Below, one piece after another: positions 13,726-64,000 of a stretch of 64,000 bases of DNA (position 1 is the stretch's first letter; each line of letters begins with the position of its first letter). The DNA is taken from the NCBI RefSeq assembly GCF_003334355.1, contig NZ_QOWP01000014.1. One strand, given 5' to 3'. This DNA comes from Escherichia coli (GTDB taxonomy: Bacteria > Pseudomonadota > Gammaproteobacteria > Enterobacterales > Enterobacteriaceae). The position numbers and the translations under genes were made by a program. Under the pieces are notes generated by a model that did no database searches, was not told the origin of the DNA, and saw only the letters and a list, made by a program, of their open reading frames with translations.

Positions 13726-16323
13726 TTAAACCGCAGTCTGGAAAATCACCCCATCGGCTTTCTCGGTGTACTGAGAAAGCTGGTTGAAGTTCAGATAACG
13801 GTAAGTATCAACGGCTGTTTTATCTACCTGCGCCACGTAGGTCTGGTACTCTTCCGGCGTCGGCAGTTTGCCAATCAGCGCCGCAACAGCCGCCAGTTCC
13901 GCAGAAGCCAGGAAGACATTCGCGCCAGTACCCAGACGGTTCGGGAAGTTACGGGTAGAGGTGGAAACCACCGTTGCACCGTCCGCCACACGCGCCTGGT
14001 TACCCATACACAGGGAACAGCCAGGGATCTCGATACGCGCACCACTCTTACCGAAGACGCTGTAGTAGCCTTCTTCGGTCAACTGTGCGGCGTCCATACG
14101 GGTTGGCGGTGCCACCCACAGGCGGGTCGGCAACTGACCTTTATGCGCATCCAGCAGTTTACCCGCAGCACGGAAGTGACCGATGTTGGTCATGCAGGAA
14201 CCGATAAACACTTCGTCGATCTTCTCACCCTGTACCGCAGACAGCGGACGCGCGTCATCCGGGTCGTTCGGAGCACACAGGATTGGCTCTTTAATATCCG
14301 CCAGATCGATGTCGATCACTGCCGCGTATTCCGCATCTGCATCGGCTTCCAGCAGCTCAGGATTCGCCAGCCATTTTTCCATGCCCTGAATACGACGTTC
14401 CAGGGTACGACGATCGCCGTAACCTTCCGCGATCATCCACTTCAGCAGGACGATGTTAGAGTTAAGGTATTCGATGATCGGTTCTTTGTTCAGCTTGATA
14501 GTACAACCAGCGGCAGAACGCTCAGCGGACGCATCGGTAAGCTCAAAGGCCTGCTCAACTTTCAGATCCGGCAGACCTTCAATTTCCAGAATGCGGCCAG
14601 AGAAGATGTTTTTCTTGCCTTTCTTCTCAACGGTCAGCAGACCTTGTTTGATGGCATACAGCGGAATGGCGTGTACCAGATCGCGCAGGGTGATGCCCGG
14701 CTGCATTTTGCCTTTGAAGCGCACCAGAACGGATTCCGGCATATCCAGCGGCATTACGCCTGTTGCGGCTGCAAATGCCACCAGACCAGAACCCGCCGGG
14801 AAAGAGATACCGATCGGGAAACGGGTATGGGAGTCACCTCCGGTACCGACGGTATCCGGCAGCAGCATACGGTTCAGCCAGGAGTGGATTACGCCGTCAC
14901 CCGGACGCAGCGACACACCGCCACGGTTCATAATGAAGTCCGGCAGCGTGTGGTGCGTGTTCACGTCAACCGGCTTCGGATACGCCGCGGTGTGGCAGAA
15001 AGACTGCATCACCAGGTCAGCCGAGAAGCCCAGGCACGCCAGGTCTTTCAGTTCATCACGGGTCATCGGGCCTGTGGTGTCCTGAGAGCCTACAGAAGTC
15101 ATTTTCGGTTCGCAGTACGCGCCCGGACGAATGCCTTTCACGCCACAGGCACGGCCTACCATTTTTTGCGCCAGCGAGAAGCCGCGATCGCTCTCAGCGA
15201 CATCTTTCGCCTGACGGAACACATCACTGTGCGGCAGACCAAGTGCTTCACGCGCTTTGGTGGTCAGGCCACGCCCAATAATCAGCGGAATACGGCCGCC
15301 AGCACGCACTTCATCAATCAGCACGTCGGTTTTCAGTTCGAAGGTCGCCAGCAGTTCGCCGGTTTCGTGGTTACGCACTTCACCTTTGTACGGGTAAACG
15401 TCAATTACGTCGCCCATGTTCAGGTTAGAGACGTCGACTTCGATTGGCAGTGCACCTGCGTCTTCCATTGTGTTAAAGAAGATTGGTGCAATTTTACCGC
15501 CGAGACACAAACCACCGCCGCGTTTGTTCGGCACATGTGGAATATCATCACCCATAAACCACAGTACGGAGTTCGTGGCGGATTTACGCGATGAACCCGT
15601 ACCCACAACGTCACCGACGTACGCCAGCGGGAAACCTTTCTGTTGCAGAGCTTCGATTTGCTTGATCGGACCAACAACACCTGGCTGGTCTGGCTCGATG
15701 CCTTCACGGGCGTTTTTCAGCATCGCCAGCGCGTGCAGTGGGATATCCGGGCGTGACCACGCATCCGGTGCCGGAGAGAGGTCATCGGTGTTGGTTTCGC
15801 CAGTGACTTTGAAGACGGTAACGGTCAGTTTTTCAGCCAGCGCCGGGCGATTCAGGAACCATTCGGCATCCGCCCAGGACTGCATTACCTGCTTCGCATA
15901 TTCGTTGCCTGCTTTCGCTTTCTCTTCTACGTCATAGAAGTTATCGAACATCAGCAGTGTGTGAGAAAGTGCTTTGGCAGCGATCGGTGCCAGTTTGGCA
16001 TCATCCAGCGCGTCGATCAGCGGATGAATGTTGTAACCACCCTGCATGGTGCCCAGCAGTTCGATGGCTTTTTCCGGAGTCAGCAGAGGGGATTTGGCTT
16101 CGCCTTTAGCGATAGCAGCCAGGAAGCCTGCTTTGACATAGGCGGCTTCATCGACGCCTGGGGGAACACGGTTGGTTAACAGATCTAACAGGAATTCTTC
16201 TTCGCCCGCGGGCGGGTTTTTCAGCAGCTCTACAAGTGCGGCCATTTGGTTTGCATCCAGGGGTTTGGGCGCAATCCCCTCAGCGGCACGCTCAGCTACG
16301 TGCTTACGGTATTCTTCTAGCAC
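13726..16323 (-). CDS. acnB: aconitate hydratase B (bifunctional aconitase / 2-methylisocitrate dehydratase)
   Basis: ORF-track 916 aa trimmed to GTG at 16321-16323 giving (M)[15 protein letters not shown] (865 aa), matching AcnB. Confidence 0.95.
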
Positions 16324-16677: not shown

Positions 16678-18531
16678 ATGAAAATGACTTTGCCGTTTAA
16701 ACCCCATGTGCTGGCGCTAATTTGCAGTGCCGGGCTTTGTGCCGCCTCTGCCGGGCTATATATAAAAAGCCGCACAGTGGAAGCGCCTGTGGAACCGCAA
16801 TCGACACAACAGACTGCGCCTGACATCTCCGCAGTTACGCTTCCTGCAACGGTTTCCGTGCCTCCTGTAACACCTGCCGTCGTCAAATCCGCATTCAGCA
16901 CTGCTCAAATAGATCAATGGGTTGCACCTGTCGCGCTATACCCCGACGCCCTACTTTCGCAGGTGCTGATGGCATCAACCTATCCGACAAACGTTGCTCA
17001 AGCAGTGCAATGGTCGCACGATAATCCACTTAAACAAGGCGATGCTGCTATTCAGGCGGTATCTGACCAGCCGTGGGACGCCAGCGTTAAATCACTGGTG
17101 GCCTTTCCACAATTGATGGCATTGATGGGCGAAAACCCGCAATGGGTGCAAAACCTGGGCGATGCTTTTCTGGCGCAGCCGCAGGACGTGATGGACTCGG
17201 TACAGCGATTGCGGCAACTGGCGCAACAAACCGGCTCGCTGAAGTCATCAACCGAACAGAAAGTTATTACCACAACGAAGAAAGCTGTACCGGTAAAACA
17301 GACAGTCACGGCACCCGTCATACCATCCAATACCGTTTTAACTGCCAACCCCGTCATTACAGAGCCGGCAACAACCGTCATTTCCATTGAGCCCGCCAAT
17401 CCTGATGTGGTCTATATTCCCAACTACAACCCAACCGTGGTTTACGGGAACTGGACCAATACTGCGTACCCGCCGGTTTATCTGCCACCACCAGCCGGAG
17501 AACCGTTTGTTGACAGCTTTGTGCGCGGATTCGGCTATAGCATGGGCGTTGCTACCACGTACGCACTATTCAGCAGCATCGACTGGGACGACGACGATCA
17601 TGACCATCATCATCATGACGATGATGATTATCATCACCACGATGGCGGTCATCGTGACGGTAATGGCTGGCAACACAACGGCGACAACATCAATATCGAC
17701 GTCAACAATTTCAACCGTATCACCGGTGAGCATCTTACTGATAAGAATATGGCATGGCGGCACAATCCAAACTACCGTAATGGTGTGCCCTATCATGATC
17801 AGGATATGGCAAAGCGGTTTCATCAAACCGATGTCAACGGCGGAATGAGTGCCACGCAGCTACCTGCTCCAACACGCGACAGCCAGCGTCAGGCGGCAGC
17901 AAGTCAGTTTCAGCAACGAACACACGCCGCCCCCGTCATTACACGAGATACCCAACGTCAGGCAGCGGCACAGCGGTTTAATGAAGCTGAACACTATGGG
18001 AGCTATGACGACTTCCGCGACTTCAGCCGTCGCCAACCACTGATCCAGCAACAAAAGGACGCCGCTCGTCAGCGTTATCAGTCCGCCTCGCCTGAGCAGC
18101 GCCAGGCAGTTCGCGAGAGAATGCAGACTAACCCGCAGCTCCAGCAGCGAAGAGAGGCAGCGCGTGAGCGCATTCAGTCCGCCTCGCCTGAGCAGCGCCA
18201 GGCGGTTCGCGAGAAAATGCAGACTAACCCGCAGAACCAGCAGCGAAGAGACGCAGCGCGTGAGCGTATTCAGTCCGCATCACCAGAGCAGCGCCAGGTG
18301 TTTAAGGAAAAAGTACAGCAGCGCCCACTGAATCAACAGCAACGTGATAACGCCCGCCAGCGTGTTCAATCGGCATCACCTGAACAACGTCAGGTTTTTC
18401 GGGAAAAAGTTCAGGAGAGCCGCCCACAACGTCTAAACGACAGTAACCATACTGTCAGGCTGAATAACGAGCAACGGTCAGCAGTACGCGAACGTCTCTC
18501 TGAGCGCGGAGCAAGGCGACTGGAAAGGTAA
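16678..18531 (+). CDS. yacH: DUF3300-type uncharacterised secreted protein with His/Asp-rich tract and C-terminal tandem repeats
   Basis: ORF-track 617 aa; hydrophobic N-terminal signal-like segment; recognised as E. coli YacH; repeats visible in DNA and protein. Confidence 0.85.
   Translation: MKMTLPFKPHVLALICSAGLCAASAGLYIKSRTVEAPVEPQSTQQTAPDISAVTLPATVSVPPVTPAVVKSAFSTAQIDQWVAPVALYPDALLSQVLMASTYPTNVAQAVQWSHDNPLKQGDAAIQAVSDQPWDASVKSLVAFPQLMALMGENPQWVQNLGDAFLAQPQDVMDSVQRLRQLAQQTGSLKSSTEQKVITTTKKAVPVKQTVTAPVIPSNTVLTANPVITEPATTVISIEPANPDVVYIPNYNPTVVYGNWTNTAYPPVYLPPPAGEPFVDSFVRGFGYSMGVATTYALFSSIDWDDDDHDHHHHDDDDYHHHDGGHRDGNGWQHNGDNINIDVNNFNRITGEHLTDKNMAWRHNPNYRNGVPYHDQDMAKRFHQTDVNGGMSATQLPAPTRDSQRQAAASQFQQRTHAAPVITRDTQRQAAAQRFNEAEHYGSYDDFRDFSRRQPLIQQQKDAARQRYQSASPEQRQAVRERMQTNPQLQQRREAARERIQSASPEQRQAVREKMQTNPQNQQRRDAARERIQSASPEQRQVFKEKVQQRPLNQQQRDNARQRVQSASPEQRQVFREKVQESRPQRLNDSNHTVRLNNEQRSAVRERLSERGARRLER
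17587..17656 (+). other. yacH: His/Asp-rich low-complexity tract in YacH (DDDDHDHHHHDDDDYHHHDGGH)
   Basis: gac/cat codon run read directly; plausible divalent-metal binding segment. Confidence 0.8.
18058..18441 (+). repeat. yacH: Four tandem copies of a 96-bp (32-codon) repeat inside yacH
   Basis: The motif cagtccgcctcgcctgagcagcgccagg recurs at about 18079, 18175 and 18271, with a diverged copy near 18367; encodes repeated ...ARERIQSASPEQRQAVREKMQTNPQ... Confidence 0.85.
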
Positions 18532-22257: not shown

Positions 22258-24921
22258 TTACGCCAGACGCGGGTTAACTTTATCTGCATCGATGTTGAAT
22301 TTGGCGATTGCGTCAGCAACCACTTTCTTATCGATTTCGCCACGTTTAGCCAGTTCGCCCAGCGCCGCAACCACGACATAAGAAGCATCAACTTCGAAGT
22401 GGTGACGCAGGTTCTCACGGCTGTCGGAACGACCGAAGCCATCAGTACCCAGTACGCGGTAGTCGTCAGCCGGTACGTAAGTACGGACCTGCTCAGCGAA
22501 CAGTTTCATATAGTCGGTAGATGCCACTGCCGGAGCGTCGTTCATCACCTGAGCGATATACGGAACGCGCGGAGTTTCCAGCGGGTGCAGCATGTTCCAG
22601 CGTTCACAATCCTGACCATCACGCGCCAGCTCGGTGAAGGAGGTCACGCTATAAACGTCAGAACCTACGCCGTAATCTTTCGCCAGGATCTCAGCTGCTT
22701 CACGGACGTGACGCAGGATAGAACCGGAGCCGAGCAGCTGAACTTTACCTTTGCTACCTTCAATAGTTTCGAGTTTGTAGATACCTTTACGGATACCTTC
22801 CTCAGCACCTTCCGGCATTGCCGGCATGTGGTAGTTTTCGTTCAGCGTAGTGATGTAGTAGTAAACGTTCTCTTGTTTTTCACCGTACATACGCTCCAGA
22901 CCGTCATGCATGATGACAGCAACTTCGTAAGCGTAAGCCGGGTCGTAAGAGATACAGTTCGGGATAGTCAGCGACTGAATGTGGCTGTGACCATCTTCGT
23001 GCTGCAGACCTTCGCCGTTCAGGGTGGTACGACCGGAAGTACCGCCGATCAGGAAGCCACGCGCTTGCTGGTCGCCAGCCGCCCAGCACAGATCGCCAAT
23101 ACGCTGGAAGCCGAACATCGAGTAATAGATGTAGAACGGGATCATCGGCAGATTGTTGGTGCTGTAAGAGGTCGCCGCTGCCAGCCAGGAACAACCTGCG
23201 CCCAGCTCGTTGATCCCTTCCTGCAGAATCTGACCTTTCTCGTCTTCTTTATAGTAAGCAACCTGCTCGCGGTCCTGCGGGGTGTACTGCTGACCGTTCG
23301 GGCTGTAAATACCAATCTGACGGAACAGACCTTCCATACCGAAAGTACGCGCTTCGTCGGCGATGATCGGTACCAGACGATCTTTGATCGACTTGTTCTT
23401 CAGCATCACGTTCAGAGCACGAACGAAAGCGATAGTGGTAGAGATCTCTTTGCTCTGCTCTTCCAACAGCGCGCCGAAGTCTTGCAGGCTCGGCAGCTCA
23501 AGCTTCTCGGTGAAGTTCGGCTGACGGCTTGGCAGATAACCGTGCAGTTTCTGACGCTGAGCGTGCAGATAGGTATGCTCTTCAGAGCCTTCCGGGAAGG
23601 TGATGTACGGCAGTTTTTCGATATCTGCATCAGACACCGGCACATTGAAACGGTCGCGGATGTGACGCACGCCGTCCATGTTCATTTTCTTAACCTGGTG
23701 CGCGATGTTTTTACCTTCAGCCGCGTCGCCCATGCCGTAACCTTTAATGGTATGAGCAAGGATTACTGTCGCTTTGCCTTTGGTTTCCTGCGCTTTCTTG
23801 AATGCAGCGTAGATTTTCTTCGGATCGTGACCACCACGGTTCAGTGCCCAGATCTGCTCGTCAGTCCAGTCTGCAACCAGTGCTGCGGTTTCAGGATATT
23901 TACCGAAGAAGTGTTCACGAACGTACGCACCATCTTTCGATTTGAAGGTCTGGTAGTCGCCGTCAACGGTTTCGTTCATCAGCTGGATCAGTTTACCGCT
24001 GGTATCTTTACGCAGCAGTTCATCCCAACGGCTACCCCACATCACTTTGATCACGTTCCAGCCAGCACCTTCGAAGATGCCTTCCAGTTCGTTGATGATC
24101 TTGCCGTTACCGGTGACCGGGCCGTCAAGACGCTGCAGGTTACAGTTGATAACGAAGACCAGGTTATCCAGTTTTTCACGGGTAGCGATGGTGATCGCAC
24201 CTTTGGATTCCGGTTCGTCCATTTCACCGTCGCCGAGGAACGCGTAAACGGTCTGTTTAGAGGTATCTTTCAGGCCACGGTGTTCCAGATATTTCAGGAA
24301 TTTAGCCTGGTAAATAGCACCAATCGGCCCCAGACCCATAGATACGGTCGGGAACTGCCAGAATTCCGGCATCAGTTTCGGGTGCGGATAGGAAGAGAGG
24401 CCATTGCCGTGAACTTCCTGACGGAAGTTATCCAGCTGCTCCTGAGTCAGACGACCTTCCAGGAAAGCACGAGCGTACACGCCCGGGGAGATGTGGCCCT
24501 GGAAGTAAACCAGGTCGCCGCCATCCTGCTCGTTGCGTGCACGGAAGAAGTGGTTAAAGCACACATCATAAATGGTTGCGGAAGACTGGAAGGACGCCAT
24601 ATGGCCGCCCAGTTCGAGGTCTTTTTTCGACGCACGCAGCACCGTCATGATGGCGTTCCAGCGGATAGCTGAACGAATACGGCGTTCCAGTTCCAGATTA
24701 CCCGGATACTCCGGTTGTTCTCCAACGGGGATGGTGTTGATGTAGTTGCTGATACCTGTGCCTGCGGCTACGTTTACACCGCCTTTGCGGGCTTCAGCAA
24801 GCAGTTGGTCGATCAGATACTGAGCACGCTCAACACCTTCTTCACGGATGACCGATTCGATCGCCTGGAGCCAGTCGCGAGTTTCGATCGGATCCACGTC
24901 ATTTGGGAAACGTTCTGACAT
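22258..24921 (-). CDS. aceE: pyruvate dehydrogenase E1 component
   Basis: ORF-track 887 aa starting [24 protein letters not shown], recognised as AceE. Confidence 0.97.
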
Positions 24922-25081
24922 GGGTTATTCCTTATCTATCTAATAACGTTGAGTTTTCTGGAACCTGTCCCATTGAACTCTCGCCGGAAAGCTCAATAAG
25001 ACAGGTTCTACGTTTAGTTGCCGCGCTTTTATATGCGCTTGATTTACAACATCTTCTGGATAATTTTTACCAGAAAAATCA

Positions 25082-25846
25082 CTAATTCTTTCGTTGCTCC
25101 AGACGACGCAGAGAACGCTCACGGCGGCTCTCTTCACGACTTCTGTCGAGCAAAATTTCTTCGATAAAGGCCAGATGGCGATGCGATGCTTCGCGCGCTT
25201 CTTCCGGCTTACCGGCCATAATCGCTTCAAATATGCGGGTGCGGTGACTACTCACCAGCGGCAGCATCTCGCGACGCGAATAGAGCAATTCGAAGTTCTG
25301 GCGGACATTCTGGGCCAACATCGGCTCCATACACCTTAGCAGATGAAGCAGAACCACATTGTGGGCCGCTTCAGTGACAGCAATCTGATACTGGAGTACG
25401 GCGTTTGATTCCGCGTCCAGATCGCCAGACTGCTGCGCCAGCTCTATGGCGTGGTGGAGTTCACGGATGCGTTCCTTGTCTTCATCGGTACTACGCAGCG
25501 CGGCGTAATAAGCGGCGATACCTTCCAGGGCGTGTCGTGTTTCGAGCAAGTCATACTGTGACTCAGGATGGTCGGAGAGCAGCTCCACCAGCGGATCGCT
25601 GAAGCTTTGCCATAGGCTGCTCTGGACAAAAGTGCCGCCACCCTGGCGACGAAGCAACAAGCCCTTCGCTTCGAGACGTTGAATCGCCTCACGCAAGGAG
25701 GGACGGGAGACGTCAAACTGTTTTGCCAGTTCGCGTTCCGGTGGGAGTTTTTCGCCCGGGCGGAGAGTGCCTTCGAGGATCAAAAACTCCAGTTGCTGCT
25801 CAATCACATCGGAGAGTTTTGGTTGGCGGATTTTGCTGTAGGCCAT
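25082..25846 (-). CDS. pdhR: GntR-family pyruvate-responsive repressor PdhR
   Basis: ORF-track 265 aa trimmed to [20 protein letters not shown] (254 aa); PdhR-box palindrome upstream. Confidence 0.95.
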
Positions 25847-25877
25847 GAGTTCCTGTCTTAAGCCACTTGCCGAAGTC

Positions 25878-25894
25878 AATTGGTCTTACCAATT
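25878..25894. promoter_or_regulatory. PdhR operator (PdhR box) upstream of pdhR
   Basis: Perfect palindrome AATTGGTcttACCAATT about 35 bp upstream of the pdhR start; matches the known PdhR box. Confidence 0.8.
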
Positions 25895-26274
25895 TCATGT
25901 CTGTGACGCTAAAGTAACAAAGTATTCACCTTATGTCCATACAGGTTTTGATTGAAATCATGAAACTGTGCACATTTTAACAACTTGACATATATAACGT
26001 TTCAAAGTTGTAACTATGCACAAATGTAGACTTTACGTAGGAAAGGAGTTTTTAACGATTATTAAACTATAAAAATCCGAATTGAACCGATTCACTTACC
26101 AATTTTGTGATTTTTAATTCAATTAAAACGAATTTAAATTCATTCTACATATTGAGAGGGATTGAGGCTGAGCTTTACAAACGGTTTCTTTTTAAGCAAC
26201 TCATCTTCAACCATGCATAAAGCGGGTGCATTCGCTGCCGTATACCATTATTCTTGATCTGACGGAAGTCTTTT

Positions 26275-26315
26275 TGTAACAATTCAAACTTCTTTGATGT
26301 AAACAAATTAATACA
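26275..26315 (+). promoter_or_regulatory. Putative TyrR boxes in the aroP promoter region
   Basis: TGTAAAcaaattaATACA (26298-26315) resembles the TyrR box TGTAAA-N6-TTTACA; weaker TGTAAC half-site at 26275; aroP is a known TyrR target. Confidence 0.5.
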
Positions 26316-26385
26316 ACAAACGGAATTGCAAACTTACACACGCATCACTGCGTAGATCAAAAAAACAACCACCGCACGAGGTTTC

Positions 26386-27759
26386 ATGATGGAAGGTCAA
26401 CAGCACGGCGAGCAGCTAAAGCGCGGCCTTAAAAACCGCCATATTCAGCTTATCGCGCTGGGTGGCGCGATAGGGACCGGGTTATTCCTGGGTAGCGCCT
26501 CCGTAATACAGTCCGCAGGGCCAGGGATTATCCTGGGTTACGCCATTGCTGGTTTTATCGCCTTTCTGATCATGCGTCAGCTGGGTGAAATGGTGGTCGA
26601 AGAACCTGTCGCAGGCTCCTTTAGCCACTTTGCTTATAAATACTGGGGCAGTTTTGCCGGTTTCGCCTCTGGCTGGAACTACTGGGTACTGTACGTTTTA
26701 GTTGCCATGGCTGAGCTGACTGCCGTGGGTAAATACATTCAGTTCTGGTATCCGGAAATCCCCACCTGGGTTTCTGCCGCCGTATTCTTTGTGGTGATTA
26801 ACGCCATCAACCTGACCAACGTTAAAGTGTTTGGCGAGATGGAGTTCTGGTTTGCCATTATCAAAGTTATCGCGGTGGTCGCGATGATCATCTTCGGCGG
26901 CTGGCTGCTATTCAGTGGCAACGGCGGCCCGCAGGCGACCGTTAGCAACCTGTGGGATCAGGGTGGTTTCCTGCCGCACGGCTTCACCGGGCTGGTGATG
27001 ATGATGGCGATTATCATGTTCTCGTTCGGTGGTCTGGAACTGGTGGGGATCACCGCAGCAGAAGCTGATAACCCGGAGCAAAGTATCCCGAAAGCGACTA
27101 ACCAGGTTATCTACCGCATCCTGATTTTCTATATTGGTTCGTTAGCCGTTCTGCTCTCACTGATGCCGTGGACCCGCGTTACCGCCGATACCAGTCCGTT
27201 TGTGCTGATCTTCCACGAGTTAGGCGATACCTTTGTGGCGAATGCGCTGAACATCGTGGTACTGACTGCGGCGCTCTCCGTGTACAACAGCTGCGTATAT
27301 TGCAACAGCCGTATGCTGTTTGGTCTGGCACAACAGGGTAATGCGCCAAAAGCGCTGGCGTCTGTCGATAAACGCGGCGTACCGGTTAACACCATTCTGG
27401 TGTCTGCGCTGGTTACAGCATTGTGCGTATTGATTAACTATCTTGCTCCGGAATCCGCATTTGGCCTGTTAATGGCACTGGTGGTATCCGCACTGGTGAT
27501 CAACTGGGCGATGATCAGTCTGGCGCATATGAAGTTCCGTCGCGCCAAGCAGGAACAAGGCGTGGTAACTCGCTTCCCTGCTCTGCTTTATCCGCTGGGT
27601 AACTGGATCTGCCTGCTGTTTATGGCGGCGGTACTGGTGATTATGCTGATGACCCCAGGAATGGCGATTTCGGTATACCTGATCCCGGTATGGCTGATCG
27701 TGTTAGGTATCGGCTATCTGTTTAAAGAGAAAACCGCCAAAGCCGTAAAAGCGCATTAA
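26386..27759 (+). CDS. aroP: aromatic amino acid:H+ symporter (APC family)
   Basis: ORF-track 457 aa starting MMEGQQHGEQLKRGLKNRHIQLIALGGAIGTGLF, recognised as AroP. Confidence 0.95.
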   Translation: MMEGQQHGEQLKRGLKNRHIQLIALGGAIGTGLFLGSASVIQSAGPGIILGYAIAGFIAFLIMRQLGEMVVEEPVAGSFSHFAYKYWGSFAGFASGWNYWVLYVLVAMAELTAVGKYIQFWYPEIPTWVSAAVFFVVINAINLTNVKVFGEMEFWFAIIKVIAVVAMIIFGGWLLFSGNGGPQATVSNLWDQGGFLPHGFTGLVMMMAIIMFSFGGLELVGITAAEADNPEQSIPKATNQVIYRILIFYIGSLAVLLSLMPWTRVTADTSPFVLIFHELGDTFVANALNIVVLTAALSVYNSCVYCNSRMLFGLAQQGNAPKALASVDKRGVPVNTILVSALVTALCVLINYLAPESAFGLLMALVVSALVINWAMISLAHMKFRRAKQEQGVVTRFPALLYPLGNWICLLFMAAVLVIMLMTPGMAISVYLIPVWLIVLGIGYLFKEKTAKAVKAH

Positions 27760-36304: not shown

Positions 36305-36510
36305 CACGTAGGCCTGATAAGACGCGGGCAGCGTCGCATCAGGCATCTTGTGCAAATGTCGGATGCGGCGTGAACGCCTTATCTGACCTACAAAAACAAA
36401 TTTATCAATGAGTTATAAATCCCTGTAGGCCTGATAAGACGCGCCAGCGTCGCATCAGGCATCGTGTGCGAATGTCAGATGCGGCGAAAACGCCTTATCT
36501 GACATACACA
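36305..36510. repeat. REP cluster (four REP units, two BIME-like pairs) between yacG and mutT, last unit overlapping the mutT 3-prime end
   Basis: Alternating gtaggcctgataagacgcg...gcgtcgcatcaggc and ggatgcggcg(tg/aa)aacgccttatctgac(c/a)taca units read directly from the sequence. Confidence 0.8.
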
Positions 36511-36906: not shown

Positions 36907-36936
36907 TAAAAAAGGCGCAGAATCCTGCGCCTTTTA
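36907..36936 (-). terminator. Rho-independent terminator after secA (before mutT)
   Basis: aaggcgcag-aatc-ctgcgcctt 9-bp stem; on the minus strand followed by ttttttatagg. Confidence 0.65.
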
Positions 36937-36952
36937 CTTTAACAGTTAGCTT

Positions 36953-39658
36953 TTATTGCAGGCGGCCATGGCACTGCTTGTATTTTTTACCAGAACCGCA
37001 CGGGCAAGGATCGTTACGTCCTACTTTGCGCTCTCCAGTTTGCGCCGCCAGTGCAGCTGCGGCTGCAGAGTCGTCATCCTGATGGCTAAGCTGCTGCATT
37101 TGCGCTAAACGCTCGGCTTCCATACGACGCTGTTGTTCCAGCTCCTCAACCTCTTCAGGCATACGTACCTGGACTTTGCTCAACGTGCTGATAACTTCAT
37201 ATTTTAACGACTCCAGCATCGCTGCAAACATGGAGAACGATTCACGTTTGTATTCCTGCTTCGGATCTTTCTGTGCGTAGCCACGCAGGTGGATACCCTG
37301 ACGCAGATAGTCCATCGCTGCCAGGTGCTCTTTCCACAGGGAGTCAAGCGTTTGCAGCATGACGCCTTTCTCGAAGTGACGCATCATCTCAGCACCAACC
37401 ACTTCTTCTTTACGCTGATACACTTCGATGGACTGCGCCAGAATTCGCTCACGCAGCGTCTCTTCATGCAGTTCTGGTTCTTTATCCAGCCACTCGGCAA
37501 TTGGCAAATCGAGGTCGAAATCGTTCTTCAGACGTTCCTGCAGCCCCGGAATATCCCACATTTCTTCCAGCGACTGTGGTGGAATGTAGGCATCAATGGT
37601 CGCTTTGAACACATCTTCACGAATGCTGTTAATGGTTTCGCTCACATCGCTGACATCCAACAGTTCGTTACGCTGGGAGTAAATGGCGCGACGCTGATCG
37701 TTAGCCACGTCATCATATTCCAGCAGTTGCTTACGAATGTCGAAGTTACGGCTTTCAACTTTACGCTGGGCGTTGGCAATCGCTTTAGTCACCCACGGGT
37801 GTTCAATGGCTTCGCCTGGCTTCATACCCAGTTTACGCATCATGCCGGATACTCGGTCGGAAGCAAAAATACGCATCAGCGCATCTTCCATCGACAGGTA
37901 GAAACGGGAAGAACCAGCATCCCCCTGACGACCAGAACGACCGCGCAACTGGTTATCGATACGACGGGATTCGTGACGCTCGGTACCGATGATATGCAGG
38001 CCACCTGCTTCCAGTACCGCATCGTGACGTACCTGCCAGTCGGCTTTAATTTTTTCAATTTGCTCTGCGGTCGGATTTTCCAGCGCGGCAACTTCTGCCT
38101 GCCAGCTACCACCGAGCACAATATCTGTACCACGACCCGCCATATTGGTCGCGATAGTCACCGCAGCCGGATAACCTGCCTGAGCAACAATCGCCGCTTC
38201 GTTGGCGTGGAATTTGGCGTTCAGGACGTTGTGCTTAATACCGGCTTTGGTCAGTTCGTTTGACACCAGCTCCGATTTTTCGATGGAGATAGTACCCACC
38301 AGCACCGGCTGGCCTTTCGCAGTACGTTCTTTGATATCTTCAATGATCGCCTGAATTTTTTCCGCTTCAGTCATGTAGACCAGGTCCGGCAGATCTTTAC
38401 GAATCATTGGACGGTTGGTCGGAACAACGACGGTATCCAGCTTGTAGATTGAGCTAAATTCGAAAGCTTCGGTATCAGCAGTACCGGTCATCCCCGCCAG
38501 TTTTTCATACAGACGGAAGTAGTTCTGGAAGGTGATCGAAGCCAGCGTTTGGTTTTCGTTCTGGATCTGCACACCTTCTTTCGCTTCCACAGCCTGGTGC
38601 AGACCATCGGACCAGCGACGGCCCTGCATGGTACGACCGGTGTGTTCGTCAACGATGATAACTTCACCATCTTTAACGATGTAGTCGACGTCACGGGTAA
38701 ACAGCGCATGAGCGCGCAGCGCCGCCGTTACGTGGTGCATCAGCATGATGTTGGCCGGAGAGTACAGAGACTCCCCTTCATCCATGATGCCCTCTTTCAC
38801 CAGCAGTTCTTCAATCAGCACCAGACCACGTTCGGTCAGGTTCACCTGGCGAGATTTTTCGTCCACCGAGAAGTGGCCTTCGCCCTGGAAGGTTTCGGAG
38901 TCTTCTTTTTCCTGACGGATCAGGTGCGGAATAATTTTATTCACGCGTTTATACATTTCCGAGCTGTCTTCTGCCGGGCCGGAAATGATCAGCGGTGTAC
39001 GCGCTTCATCGATCAGGATGGAGTCCACTTCGTCCACCAGCGCATAGTGCAGTTTACGCTGTACACGTTCTTCAGGGCTGAACGCCATGTTGTCGCGCAG
39101 GTAGTCAAAGCCGTATTCGTTGTTCGTACCGTAAGTGATGTCAGCTGCGTAAGCTTCGCGCTTTGCCGGTGCTGGCATGCCCGGCAGGTTGATACCGACA
39201 GTCAGGCCAAGGAATTCAAACAGCGGACGGTTGTTTTCGGCGTCACGTTGCGCCAGGTAGTCGTTGACGGTAACTACGTGCACGCCTTTACCGGTTAGTG
39301 CGTTCAGGTAAGCAGGCAGCGTTGCGGTCAGGGTTTTACCTTCACCGGTACGCATTTCGGCGATGCAGCGTTCGTTAAGAACCATACCGCCGAGTAACTG
39401 AACGTCGAAGTGACGCATACCAAAGACGCGCTTACTTGCCTCACGTACCACGGCGAAAGCTTCCGGGATCAGATTTTCCAGCACTTCGCCTTTTTCCAGA
39501 CGTGCACGAAACTCTGCGGTTTTCCCTTTCAGTTCTTCGTCGGAGAGTTTTTCCATCTCCGGTTCCATGGCATTGATGATGTTGACCACTTTGCGCATCC
39601 GGCGCAGGGTGCGATCGTTACGACTACCGAAAACTTTAGTTAATAATTTGATTAGCAT
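36953..39658 (-). CDS. secA: preprotein translocase ATPase SecA
   Basis: ORF-track 901 aa; C-terminal zinc-binding [14 protein letters not shown]; recognised as SecA. Confidence 0.98.
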
Positions 39659-41480: not shown

Positions 41481-42632
41481 TTAATCAGCTTGCTTACGCA
41501 GGAATGCTGGAATATCCAGATAATCCGGCTCTTTCGCAGTTTGCGGCGCATTGTCATTCACGACTTTAGCAATCGGCTTCTGCTCCTGGGTCAGCGGAGC
41601 CATCCCGTGCTGCTGGTAGCGATCCATCACTGGCTGCTGAACCTGCTTATTGGTCACCAGAGTGATTTCAGGACGTTTGTCCATGCCGATACCTGTCGCA
41701 ACAACAGTTACGCGCAGCTCGTCATTCATATCCGGGTCAAGAGAAGTACCGATAACCACGGTCGCGTTGTCGGAAGCAAATGCACGGATGGTGTTACCTA
41801 CCGTTTCGAACTCATCCAGACGCAGGTCGAAGCCCGCTGTGATGTTAACCAGCACGCCGCGTGCGCCAGACAGGTCGATATCTTCCAGCAGCGGAGAAGA
41901 GATAGCCATTTCAGCAGCTTCTTCCGCACGGTCTTCACCGCTCGCCACGCCAGAACCCATCATTGCGTAGCCCATTTCAGACATTACGGTGCGTACGTCT
42001 GCAAAGTCCACGTTCATCAAACCCGGACGAGTAATCAGTTCAGCGATACCTTGCACAGCGCCTTTCAGTACATCGTTCGCTGCGCCAAACGCATCCAGCA
42101 GGGAGATACCGCGGCCCAGAACTTTCAGCAGTTTGTCGTTCGGGATAGTGATCAGAGAGTCCACATGCTTGGACAGTTCAGTGATCCCCTGCTCCGCGAA
42201 TGCCATACGCTTCTTGCCTTCAAAGTTGAAAGGCTTAGTGACGACAGCAACGGTCAGGATACCCAAATCTTTTGCCACTTCAGCGACGACTGGTGCTGCA
42301 CCTGTACCGGTACCACCACCCATACCCGCAGCAATAAAGACCATGTCTGCACCTTCCAGCGCAGCACGCAATGCATCGCGATCCTCATCAGCCGCATTGC
42401 GGCCAACTTCTGGATTAGCGCCAGCGCCCAGTCCTTTGGTGATACCGCTACCGATTTGAATCGTCTGTCCAACCGCTGTTTTACGCAGCGCTTGTGCATC
42501 GGTATTTACCGCGAAGAATTCAACACCTTCAATGCGCTCACGCACCATGTGTTCAACAGCATTACCGCCGCCGCCGCCGACGCCGATGACTTTAATCACC
42601 GCGTCATTGGTAAGTTCCATTGGTTCAAACAT
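41481..42632 (-). CDS. ftsZ: cell division GTPase FtsZ
   Basis: ORF-track 383 aa; tubulin signature GGGTGTG; recognised as FtsZ. Confidence 0.98.
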
Positions 42633-42692
42633 AGTTTCTCTCCGATTTGTGCCTGTCGCCTGAGGCCGTAATCATCGTCGGCCTCATAAAAA

Positions 42693-43955
42693 TTAAAACT
42701 CTTTTCGCAGCCAACTATTGAGTCGCTTGATCCACGAGCCAACTGATGCTGTAACACGTTTTTCTACTTCAGCTTCACCGTTAAGATGTGACTCTTTCCC
42801 ATAGTGAAGCAATCCCACCGCCGTCGAATAATACGGCTCCTGAGCATAATCCGTTAAACCGGTAATGTTCAGCGGCGCGCCGATACGCACTTGCGTATGA
42901 AACACGCGCTGAGCACAGGCTGCAAGACCTTCGATCTGCGCTGCGCCACCGGTTAATACAATGCCTGCCGCCAGGTGATGTTTAACCCCTTGTTGGCGAA
43001 GCTTTTCCTGCAACTGCAATATCTCTTCGTTGACCAGGTTGAGCAGCTCGGTATAGCGCGGCTCGATCACCTCTGCCAGGGTCTGACGTTGCAGACTCCG
43101 CGGCGGACGACCACCTACGCTCGGCACTTCCACGCTCTCATCTTTTCCAACGATGGAACCCAGCGCACAACCGTGGCGAACTTTAATCGCTTCGGCGTCG
43201 CTTGGCGGCGTGCCAAAGGCGTAAGCGATATCACTGGTCACGACATTGCCAGCATAAGGAATTACCTTAGTGTGGCGCAATGCCCCACCGGTATAAACGG
43301 CGATATCCATTGTACCACCACCGATATCGACGACGCAGACACCCAGTTCACGTTCATCTTCCGTCAATACCGAATAACTTGATGCCAGTCCGGCAAATAT
43401 CAGTTGGTCAACTTTCAGCCCACAACGTTCAACCGCTTTGACGATGTTTTTCGCCATATCGTTGTGACATGTGATCAGGTGCACTTTTGCCTGCATCCGC
43501 ACGCCCGAAAGTCCTACCGGATTCTTGATCCCTTCCTGATAGTCAATCGCATACTCTTGCGGGATCACATGCAGCACACGATGCTCATCGCGCACACGCA
43601 CCGATTTCGCGGTGTGGACGACGTTTTCCACATCTTCTTGCGTTACTTCTTCTTCAGAAATAGGCACCATACCAATTTCATTCTGGCAGCTGATGTGCTT
43701 ACCAGAAAGCGCCAGATATACCGAAGAGATCTGACAATCTGCCATCAATTCTGCCTGGTCAATGGCGCGTTGTACGCACTTGACCACGGATTCGAGGTCG
43801 TTCACCCCGCCTTTATCCATACCACGCGACGGGCAGCTGCCCACGCCAATGATATTGACCATACCGTCGGGCAGAACTTCCCCTACTAAAGCGGCAACCT
43901 TCGCGGTACCAATCTCCAGTCCTACTACCAGTTTTCTGTCCGTCGCCTTGATCAT
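42693..43955 (-). CDS. ftsA: cell division protein FtsA (actin-like ATPase)
   Basis: ORF-track 420 aa starting [27 protein letters not shown], recognised as FtsA. Confidence 0.98.
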
Positions 43956-62307: not shown

Positions 62308-62624
62308 GGCCTGCCTCACTGTTTGACGGAAAAAATGTGTAAAACACATTAACCGTCCGATCTTGCTTAAGCAATTGGCAGCCAGAGACATAAACACGGG
62401 GTAATAAGAATAAACAGGAGGAAAGGTGAAAAGAAACGATAAAATCCTCCATTACAGAGGATTAAATTGATAATAAATCGGCTGAATCCCACAACTTACA
62501 GCAATTTCTCTATTTTTTTAATTAATCCTAAAATAGAGAGCCCACACATTCAGAATAAAATTCTACATTCAATAAAAAATGCAGAATAAACCAGACATTC
62601 ATGTCTGACCTATTCTGCAATCAG
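62308..62624 (-). promoter_or_regulatory. ilvIH promoter / upstream AT-rich region (Lrp-regulated)
   Basis: 317-bp AT-rich leuO-ilvI intergenic region; ilvIH is a known Lrp-activated operon; individual sites not resolved by eye. Confidence 0.45.
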
Positions 62625-63569
62625 TTAGCGTTTGCAAATTGAGACTAATTGCTCTTCCATCCACTGATGGCCTTTATCGCGCCCGGCAGCTTCATGCCAG
62701 GAGAGATAACAGGTTCTGCTGTTTTGTTTTAACGGCAGCGGTAATACCTGTAATTCTAAGGATTCAGCGAACTCTTCAGCCAGCCAACGCGGCGCAATAG
62801 CGACCAAATGCGTTTGCGACACCACGCTAAGTACGCTCATCATTGCCATGCCCTGATACGCGATACTGGCTTGCTTATCTACCGTGTCATACCAAGGTTG
62901 ACTAAATGACGCGAAACGATCGAGCGAAACCGCCGCATGTTGTTCGTTATAAACATCATGTTTCAGTAACGGGCCCTTAATTGTTGGATGATTTTTGCTG
63001 GCTACCAGCACCATTTCATCTTTAAATAATGGTACGCTGGTAAATTCAGGACGATGGAAGTCTTCATAACTAATCACAAACTCCGTTTCCTGATAACGCA
63101 GCTGATGTTCAGTGTTCTGATTTAATGAAGACTTGAACATAACATGTATATTTGGCGCAATCTGCTCAATGTGATTATAAATCTGCGAGGTCAGAATGCT
63201 GTCTAACGGGCTGCAAACACAAAGATGAAATACACGTTCACTGCTCGCGGGTTCAAAACCTGAACCAGGCAATTCATTTTGTACTAGTTGCAATGCCTGA
63301 CGAACTGAACCAAAAAGTTGAAATGCGCGAGCAGTCGGTTGAATACCACGGCCATAACGAACAAAAAGCTCGTCATTAAACATCACCTTCAGGCGTGCAA
63401 CAGCGTTACTGACCGCAGGTTGCGACATTCCCAGAACATGAGCGGCACGAGTAATGTTTTGCTCCTGCATCACGGCATCGAAAACGGTTAATAAGTTGAG
63501 ATCGACCATGCGTAGCTGTGGCTTGCTTAACTCCGCCGTCTCTGGATGATCTGTTTGTACCTCTGGCAT
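62625..63569 (-). CDS. leuO: LysR-family transcriptional regulator LeuO
   Basis: ORF-track 342 aa trimmed to [33 protein letters not shown] (314 aa), matching LeuO. Confidence 0.93.
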
Positions 63570-64000
63570 ACTTAACTCCACTGTCACACTTAACTCCCTT
63601 TCCCTTATTGGAATGCAGAGAAATAATCCTCGAGAATATGATTTATCATGCATATAAAATAAGAAAAAGGAAAATGAGTAAAATTAGGAAAACATAAAGA
63701 TACGGGTTCTGATAAAAACAGAATCCATTGCCGTGGAATGAGTCATTTACCACAGCATAATAATCCATAATGTTTTTGTTGCGAAAACAATCTAATCATA
63801 ACTACCGCGAATACTCAATCATCTACAAAATGGATTAAATGTGCTTATTTAATAATTAATTTATATATTTAATGCATTAATTCTTAACATTAATTGATCA
63901 ATAATATTCACCAAATCAATATCAAAAAAAATCGCAAAACATATAATTCAATACAAATCATCAGGATAGGTTTTGCAACGCGTGCATTTTGTCCCCTTTT
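63570..64000. promoter_or_regulatory. AT-rich leuO upstream regulatory region (probable H-NS-bound promoter region)
   Basis: Very AT-rich sequence with short A/T-tract repeats upstream of leuO; leuO is a known H-NS-silenced gene. Confidence 0.45.

Follow-up and report, generated by a model that had tools for sequence, protein, structure and literature searches.

In the rpsO–pnp and rnc leaders and in metY–nusA–infB, a long stem located in the 5' leader or between two cistrons is cleaved by RNase III; this strips the downstream message of its 5' structure and hastens its decay, and the end so generated may be mistaken for an internal promoter. Leaders of the rpsO–pnp and rnc type have internal loops and bulges. 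The stem in the pdhR–aceE spacer differs from them in being an uninterrupted 22-bp helix closed by a tetraloop, and we know of no autoregulatory loop for it. The comparison with these systems was drawn by Gordon et al. (2017; mBio, PMC5371410), in whose study the strongest new RNase III-dependent site of E. coli K-12 was found in the pdhR–aceE spacer at position 122961, with 13,954 reads in an rnc mutant as compared with 2–9 in the wild-type, and was confirmed by in vitro cleavage and 5' RACE. In the same study, the half-life of aceEF was approximately 3 min in the wild-type and 5 min in the rnc mutant, elevated pyruvate dehydrogenase (PDH) activity of the mutant was confined to early stationary phase, and the 5' end of the RNase III product was the same as the aceE start mapped earlier (Gordon et al., 2017, PMC5371410). 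This earlier end, a G residue 48 nt before the aceE ATG, had been assigned to a promoter named aceEP1-P2 (Olvera et al., 2009). It has further been reported that the sRNA GlnZ represses aceE by pairing at C-99, as supported by the compensatory mutation C-99G (Miyakoshi et al., 2022), and RNase III cleavage or rnc dependence at the spacer has been described in two further studies (Miyakoshi et al., 2022; Walling et al., 2022). A related case is the sdhB–sucA spacer of an analogous 2-oxoacid dehydrogenase operon, which, in the account of Cunningham & Guest (1998) as relayed by Miyakoshi et al. (2022), has a long stem-loop before the E1 gene that is cleaved by RNase III and is a GlnZ target. However, the effect of the rnc14 allele is opposite in the two operons, with SucA going down and AceE going up, and the GlnZ site follows the cuts in sucA but precedes those in aceE (Miyakoshi et al., 2022).

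The element described here and its function have already been published and are not new; the RNase III site of Gordon et al. (2017, PMC5371410) in K-12 is the same element and nothing differs. The evidence for cleavage comes from published experiments in E. coli K-12, while structure, strand, conservation and covariation were computed here. Our own contribution consists of covariation data from the whole order, a strand test which places the Rfam tp2 model antisense, comparative evidence against an internal promoter and the description of loop insertions.

Structure of the pdhR–aceE spacer

The window, by which we mean the whole 64,000-nt stretch of DNA analysed, is derived from E. coli; a 301-bp query around the site found a match in 5424 of the 5426 complete E. 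coli genomes, where pdhR and aceE are annotated at the matching position. The upstream cistron pdhR (25082–25846) and the downstream cistron aceE (22258–24921) are both encoded on the minus strand, and therefore the minus strand is the transcribed strand of the 160-bp spacer between them (24922–25081), which is identical to the spacer of K-12 MG1655. It had been noted in the preliminary description that gaacctgtc (24961–24969) and gacaggttc (25000–25008) are exact reverse complements located 30 nt apart inside this gap, and this is correct. The 30 nt had been taken for a loop; however, they are for the most part paired, and the actual form consists of two 22-nt arms and a 4-nt loop. We assign this 48-nt element (24961–25008, minus strand) as an RNase III hairpin of the pdhR–aceE mRNA spacer on the basis of its fold, its covariation and the published RNase III site; its 5' arm is located at 25008–24987, a CGGC loop at 24986–24983 and the 3' arm at 24982–24961. 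The 9-bp repeat is real and forms the base of this larger hairpin, but taken alone it is a common feature, since 31 perfect 9-bp inverted repeats with a spacer of 3–40 nt were counted in the whole window as compared with about 12 in random sequence.

On the minus strand, the stem is formed by 22 uninterrupted pairs, 18 of which are Watson–Crick and four G·U. At the DNA level a repeat finder reports 22-nt arms with 82% complementarity and a 4-nt spacing, and the four mismatches become G·U pairs on the minus strand, whereas the same positions are C·A mismatches on the plus strand. Folded in isolation, the minus-strand hairpin has a predicted free energy of −32.7 kcal/mol (z −9.8, with none of the shuffles folding as well), while the plus strand reaches −20.4 kcal/mol and is thus weaker by about 12 kcal/mol; the fold of the whole spacer has a z value of −5.9. 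Among the uninterrupted hairpins on both strands of the window, none is as long as the 22-pair stem, and the longest stems in ten random windows had 11–16 pairs. About two helical turns of double-stranded RNA make a substrate for RNase III, and with 22 consecutive pairs the hairpin provides the mostly uninterrupted duplex of at least 20 bp that is expected for a site of this type. The distance between the hairpin and the aceE ATG is 39 nt in this E. coli strain and 34–42 nt (mode 39) in all species examined; this conserved leader segment (24922–24960, minus strand), which would remain after cleavage, contains the Shine–Dalgarno sequence AAGGA at 24929–24933. Immediately 5' of the hairpin lies a conserved single-stranded box, GCGGCAACUAAAC (25012–25024, minus strand), within which the GlnZ pairing site C-99 corresponds to window position 25020.

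A second, small hairpin had been proposed to follow the pdhR stop codon. It does exist directly past the stop codon, although about 10 nt away from the approximate position 25044–25067 given for it, with ttctgg at 25054–25059 and ccagaa at 25070–25075. This 8-bp hairpin, UUUUCUGG/CCAGAAGA (25052–25077, minus strand), is weak (−8.1 kcal/mol, z −2.6) and was found in 38 of 75 spacers; on the sense strand it shows U·G pairs, and a few UA pairs are replaced by CG. It is missing from Klebsiella, Enterobacter and Lelliottia, and Raoultella spacers also do not have it. We speculate that it might serve as a 3' barrier for the pdhR fragment once its 3' structure has been lost. In the minimum free energy fold of the E. 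coli spacer, a 12-nt long-range complementarity (11 of 12 positions) between 25070–25081 and 24950–24961 on the minus strand brackets the whole spacer. We treat this pairing as incidental, because its upstream arm is absent from species without the small hairpin, and it was not predicted in the folds of relatives that were examined. The motif TTCTGGA is present as a direct repeat at 24956 and 25054.

Conservation and covariation across Enterobacterales

The comparison set was built from the 80 closest PdhR loci (one genome per species), from which 75 pdhR–aceE spacers were extracted, and ten further genera were added via exact-protein look-ups, giving a total of 85 spacers, all of them from Enterobacterales; Vibrio, Aeromonas and Pasteurellaceae lie beyond this set. 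By pattern, the hairpin was detected in 74 of the 75 Enterobacteriaceae/Serratia spacers and in nine of the ten further genera, namely Erwinia, Edwardsiella, Dickeya, Photorhabdus, Providencia, Limnobaculum, Ewingella, Sodalis and Brenneria. None of the spacers from Enterobacteriaceae and Serratia is devoid of the hairpin, and Pantoea is the only one among the 85 without it. The 103-nt spacer of Pantoea (locus L084) retains only a degenerate 5-bp remnant (CCTGT...ACAGG) of the hairpin and gave no match to Rfam tp2; this lineage has lost the element, which is therefore dispensable in at least one lineage. Of the 75 spacers, 44 have a hairpin of exactly 48 nt. Counted from the base, the uninterrupted pairing comprises exactly 22 pairs in half of the 84 hairpin-bearing spacers (42) and at least 12 in all 84.

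The proposal made in the preliminary description that covariation be examined across enterobacteria gave a positive answer. Among the 37 distinct 48-mers of Enterobacteriaceae, 98.5% of the cells are paired, as compared with 37–49% when the partner is slid by 1–3 columns; both sides have changed in seven of the 22 pairs, and the observed covariation score was reached by no shuffle. In Enterobacteriaceae, covariation is confined to the upper eight pairs, the basal 14 being invariant, whereas order-wide the basal pairs covary too (pairs 3, 7, 10, 12 and 13). Using RNAalifold on 22 Enterobacterales representatives, ten of the 22 pairs were found to be compensatory, and the main helix was the only conserved leader structure predicted. 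The invariance of the basal 14 bp in Enterobacteriaceae could conceivably reflect sequence-specific recognition there by a factor other than RNase III.

Strand, cleavage and rival explanations

A·C on one strand of DNA is G·U on the other, and the two strands can therefore be told apart by the kind of non-Watson–Crick pair that is tolerated. Read on the mRNA-sense strand, the stem contains 108 G·U cells and seven A·C cells (34 versus seven in the variable upper stem), and the order-wide set shows the same bias of G·U over A·C. This asymmetry indicates that the pairing has been selected in the pdhR–aceE transcript and not in an antisense RNA. Taken together, the covariation and the 108:7 ratio show that selection maintains a structure of the transcribed strand which, as judged from the sequence comparison, acts in the pdhR–aceEF–lpd transcript.

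We consider it very probable that the repeat is the base of a 22-bp RNA hairpin in the pdhR–aceEF–lpd read-through mRNA that is cut by RNase III, 39 nt before the aceE start. End mapping in the gap, which had been proposed as a further check, is available from the literature: K-12 position 122961, the peak of the RNase III-dependent RNA-seq signal, maps to window position 24977 (hairpin nt 32), and the mapped 5' end at G-48 to 24969 (hairpin nt 40), and both of these reported positions (24969–24977, minus strand) are located inside the 3' arm. RNase III makes staggered cuts that leave 2-nt 3' overhangs. The enzyme would cut both arms, at hairpin nt 39|40 and 11|12, where the cut in the 5' arm is deduced from the mapped nt 40 and the overhang rule, and G-48, located 9 bp above the stem base, would become the new 5' end; in this scheme the staggered cuts would be separated by two base pairs, namely the conserved tandem U10·G39/U11·G38. 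Cleavage is expected to part the pdhR segment of the mRNA from the aceEF–lpd segment, so that the pdhR fragment would lose its 3' structure, while the aceE message would keep a 48-nt unstructured leader, presumably with a 5' monophosphate as expected from the usual chemistry of RNase III. A monophosphorylated, unstructured leader fits with the faster decay of aceE. The cleaved message would decay faster (approximately 3 versus 5 min), probably owing to the loss of 5' structure, and the expression of pyruvate dehydrogenase would be lowered, and GlnZ, which pairs just 5' of the hairpin, increases its cleavage by RNase III. The earlier suggestion that structure in the pdhR–aceE read-through transcript modulates aceE expression or processing is supported by the longer half-life of aceEF and the higher levels of AceE and PDH in rnc mutants. 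According to the literature, the hairpin acts at a node that is central to carbon metabolism and sets the survival of the pyruvate dehydrogenase mRNA relative to that of its repressor gene, and its region is the point of action of the nitrogen-responsive sRNA GlnZ.

Two other readings assign the element to known annotations. The candidate sRNA tp2 reportedly goes back to Rivas and colleagues in 2001, and its Rfam model RF02030 matches the window at 24924–25037 on the plus strand, i.e. antisense to pdhR–aceE, over its full length (model positions 1–114) with 103.4 bits at a gathering score of 50, as compared with 29.5 bits on the minus strand; the central helix of the model is the hairpin. The match is on the same antisense strand in 12 of 14 other loci, and several screens include tp2 among the sRNAs, all of which would be in agreement with an independent sRNA gene for which the hairpin is the sRNA's own structure. 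However, the G·U pairs of the mRNA-sense strand (108 versus seven) would be C·A mismatches in an antisense tp2 RNA, the fold of which is 12 kcal/mol weaker, and the high antisense score stems largely from the conserved aceE leader sequence included in the model. A scan of 24700–26400 showed no promoter-like site on either strand and no terminator after the hairpin, and tp2 is without annotation in the current MG1655 RefSeq entry NC_000913.3. In addition, the phenotype of a tp2 deletion is a polar effect on aceEF that was not complemented in trans in a 2022 screen, overexpression of tp2 has been published to give no phenotype, and the short transcripts of the region that have been seen were detected with aceE 5' UTR probes (Walling et al., 2022), which also counts against tp2. 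The G·U pattern and the published cleavage favour the sense strand, and we regard an independent antisense sRNA as very unlikely. Our literature search, which did not extend to the original tp2 paper, found no account of how the strand of tp2 was assigned. According to the second of these readings, transcription genuinely starts at the −48 end, and the palindrome mainly serves either as a DNA operator or as the seat of an internal aceE promoter (aceEp). This end has been mapped twice and was called a promoter with weak sigma-70/sigma-38 elements (Olvera et al., 2009), and the promoter elements were judged plausible by Gordon et al. (2017, PMC5371410). However, the RNase III product shares this 5' end (Gordon et al., 2017, PMC5371410), and aceEP1-P2 is one of the few starts in the study of Olvera et al. 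(2009) without confirmation by a second method. A consensus scan returned no promoter-like site in 24700–26400. The −10-like hexamer of aceEp sits in the covarying part of the stem, and 22 of the 37 distinct hairpins have no −10-like hexamer (A2 + T6) usable for a start at nt 40, while the pairing is kept in all of them. A DNA operator, on the other hand, does not need 48 nt of continuous complementarity, compensatory changes or strand-specific G·U pairs, and a search for the PdhR operator AATTGGTnnnACCAATT gave a sole good match at 25878–25894, upstream of pdhR, and none in the hairpin. A promoter or operator as the main role of the palindrome is in our view unlikely, and a true internal promoter is disfavoured as its conserved function.

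It is highly improbable that the hairpin is a transcription terminator or attenuator that cuts read-through from pdhR into aceE. While it is a strong hairpin between two cistrons, and a possible terminator at the end of pdhR has been mentioned in the older literature, no U-tract follows the stem on either strand, and the sense strand runs on CAGAAAACUCAACG; a scan of 24700–26400 found no intrinsic terminator at either of the two hairpins, the post-stem sequence being CAGAAAACUC. The operon has moreover been published to be transcribed as one long mRNA, and aceEF levels drop on replacement of the spacer. It is scarcely credible that the hairpin belongs to a dispersed palindromic repeat family (REP, ERIC or similar) and has no locus-specific role: an ERIC-like repeat is indeed found inside the hairpin loop in about 15 species, but the hairpin itself is single-copy in 5423 E. 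coli genomes (median and maximum of one per genome) and always at the same distance from aceE. With the RNase III hairpin as the preferred reading, we give an even chance to the more far-reaching proposal that tp2 (RF02030) and aceEp (the −48 end) are both by-products of this one hairpin, which would be the sole unit under selection in Enterobacterales and be cut on both sides of the conserved tandem U·G. For annotation, the comparative results argue that the strand of the Rfam tp2 family is incorrect and that the internal aceE promoter of the textbooks might be a site of processing.

Loop insertions and other features of the window

The hairpin occurs order-wide and can accommodate a repeat of 120 nt in its loop. 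In about 15 of the 75 species (loci L015, L031, L032, L045, L046, L051, L052, L057, L067–L069, L071–L073 and L078), an insert of approximately 120 nt (73 nt in L067) is present at the same point of the apical loop and in one orientation, and the hairpin thus reaches a length of about 170 nt, with its 22 basal pairs intact. The insert is a dispersed repeat found in a median of eight places per E. coli genome, and its centre matches what we take to be the ERIC primer sequences at 13–18 of 22 positions. Hairpins of 51–70 nt are found in L039–L043, L048, L049, L075 and Klebsiella pneumoniae (L064); the extra part in K. pneumoniae (TTGGTTGTTC...GAAGAACGAAG) resembles both ends of the ERIC-like insert with the middle deleted, which suggests, as far as can be judged from sequence resemblance, repeated gain and partial loss at this loop. 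In the 599-nt spacer of Intestinirhabdus alba (L019), the hairpin loop contains a different insert of approximately 183 nt, and the hairpin is preceded by approximately 270 nt of additional sequence; neither of the two matched the ERIC motifs. In Brenneria (L091), an element that looks ERIC-like, as judged by eye from its central motif ...CTCCAGGAACTTACATGAATAAGCGGCTGGGGGAACGAGG..., is located upstream of the hairpin, at approximately 10–135 of the spacer, and not inside it.

Variation was also seen at the end of pdhR. In the Klebsiella and Raoultella loci L064 and L068–L074 the pdhR frame extends 15 nt beyond the E. coli end point (locus position 3280 versus 3265), and in L064, L070, L073 and L074 the best tblastn segment covers query residues 1–234 only, the C-terminus of PdhR being different.

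Elsewhere in the window, an 18-pair hairpin at 62580–62619 on the minus strand is followed by AUUUUUUAUU and lies 5 nt past the stop codon of the open reading frame 62625–63653; from its sequence it looks like an ordinary intrinsic terminator. Uninterrupted hairpins of 15 pairs at 17611–17644 (minus strand) and of 14 pairs at 13753–13784 (plus strand) are within the range of the random windows. Other Rfam matches above the gathering score, all on the minus strand, are PssrA at 42624–42713 (105 bits), STnc40 at 36908–36977 (85 bits) and two copies of naRNA4 at 36311–36388 and 36428–36504 (71 and 79 bits, respectively).
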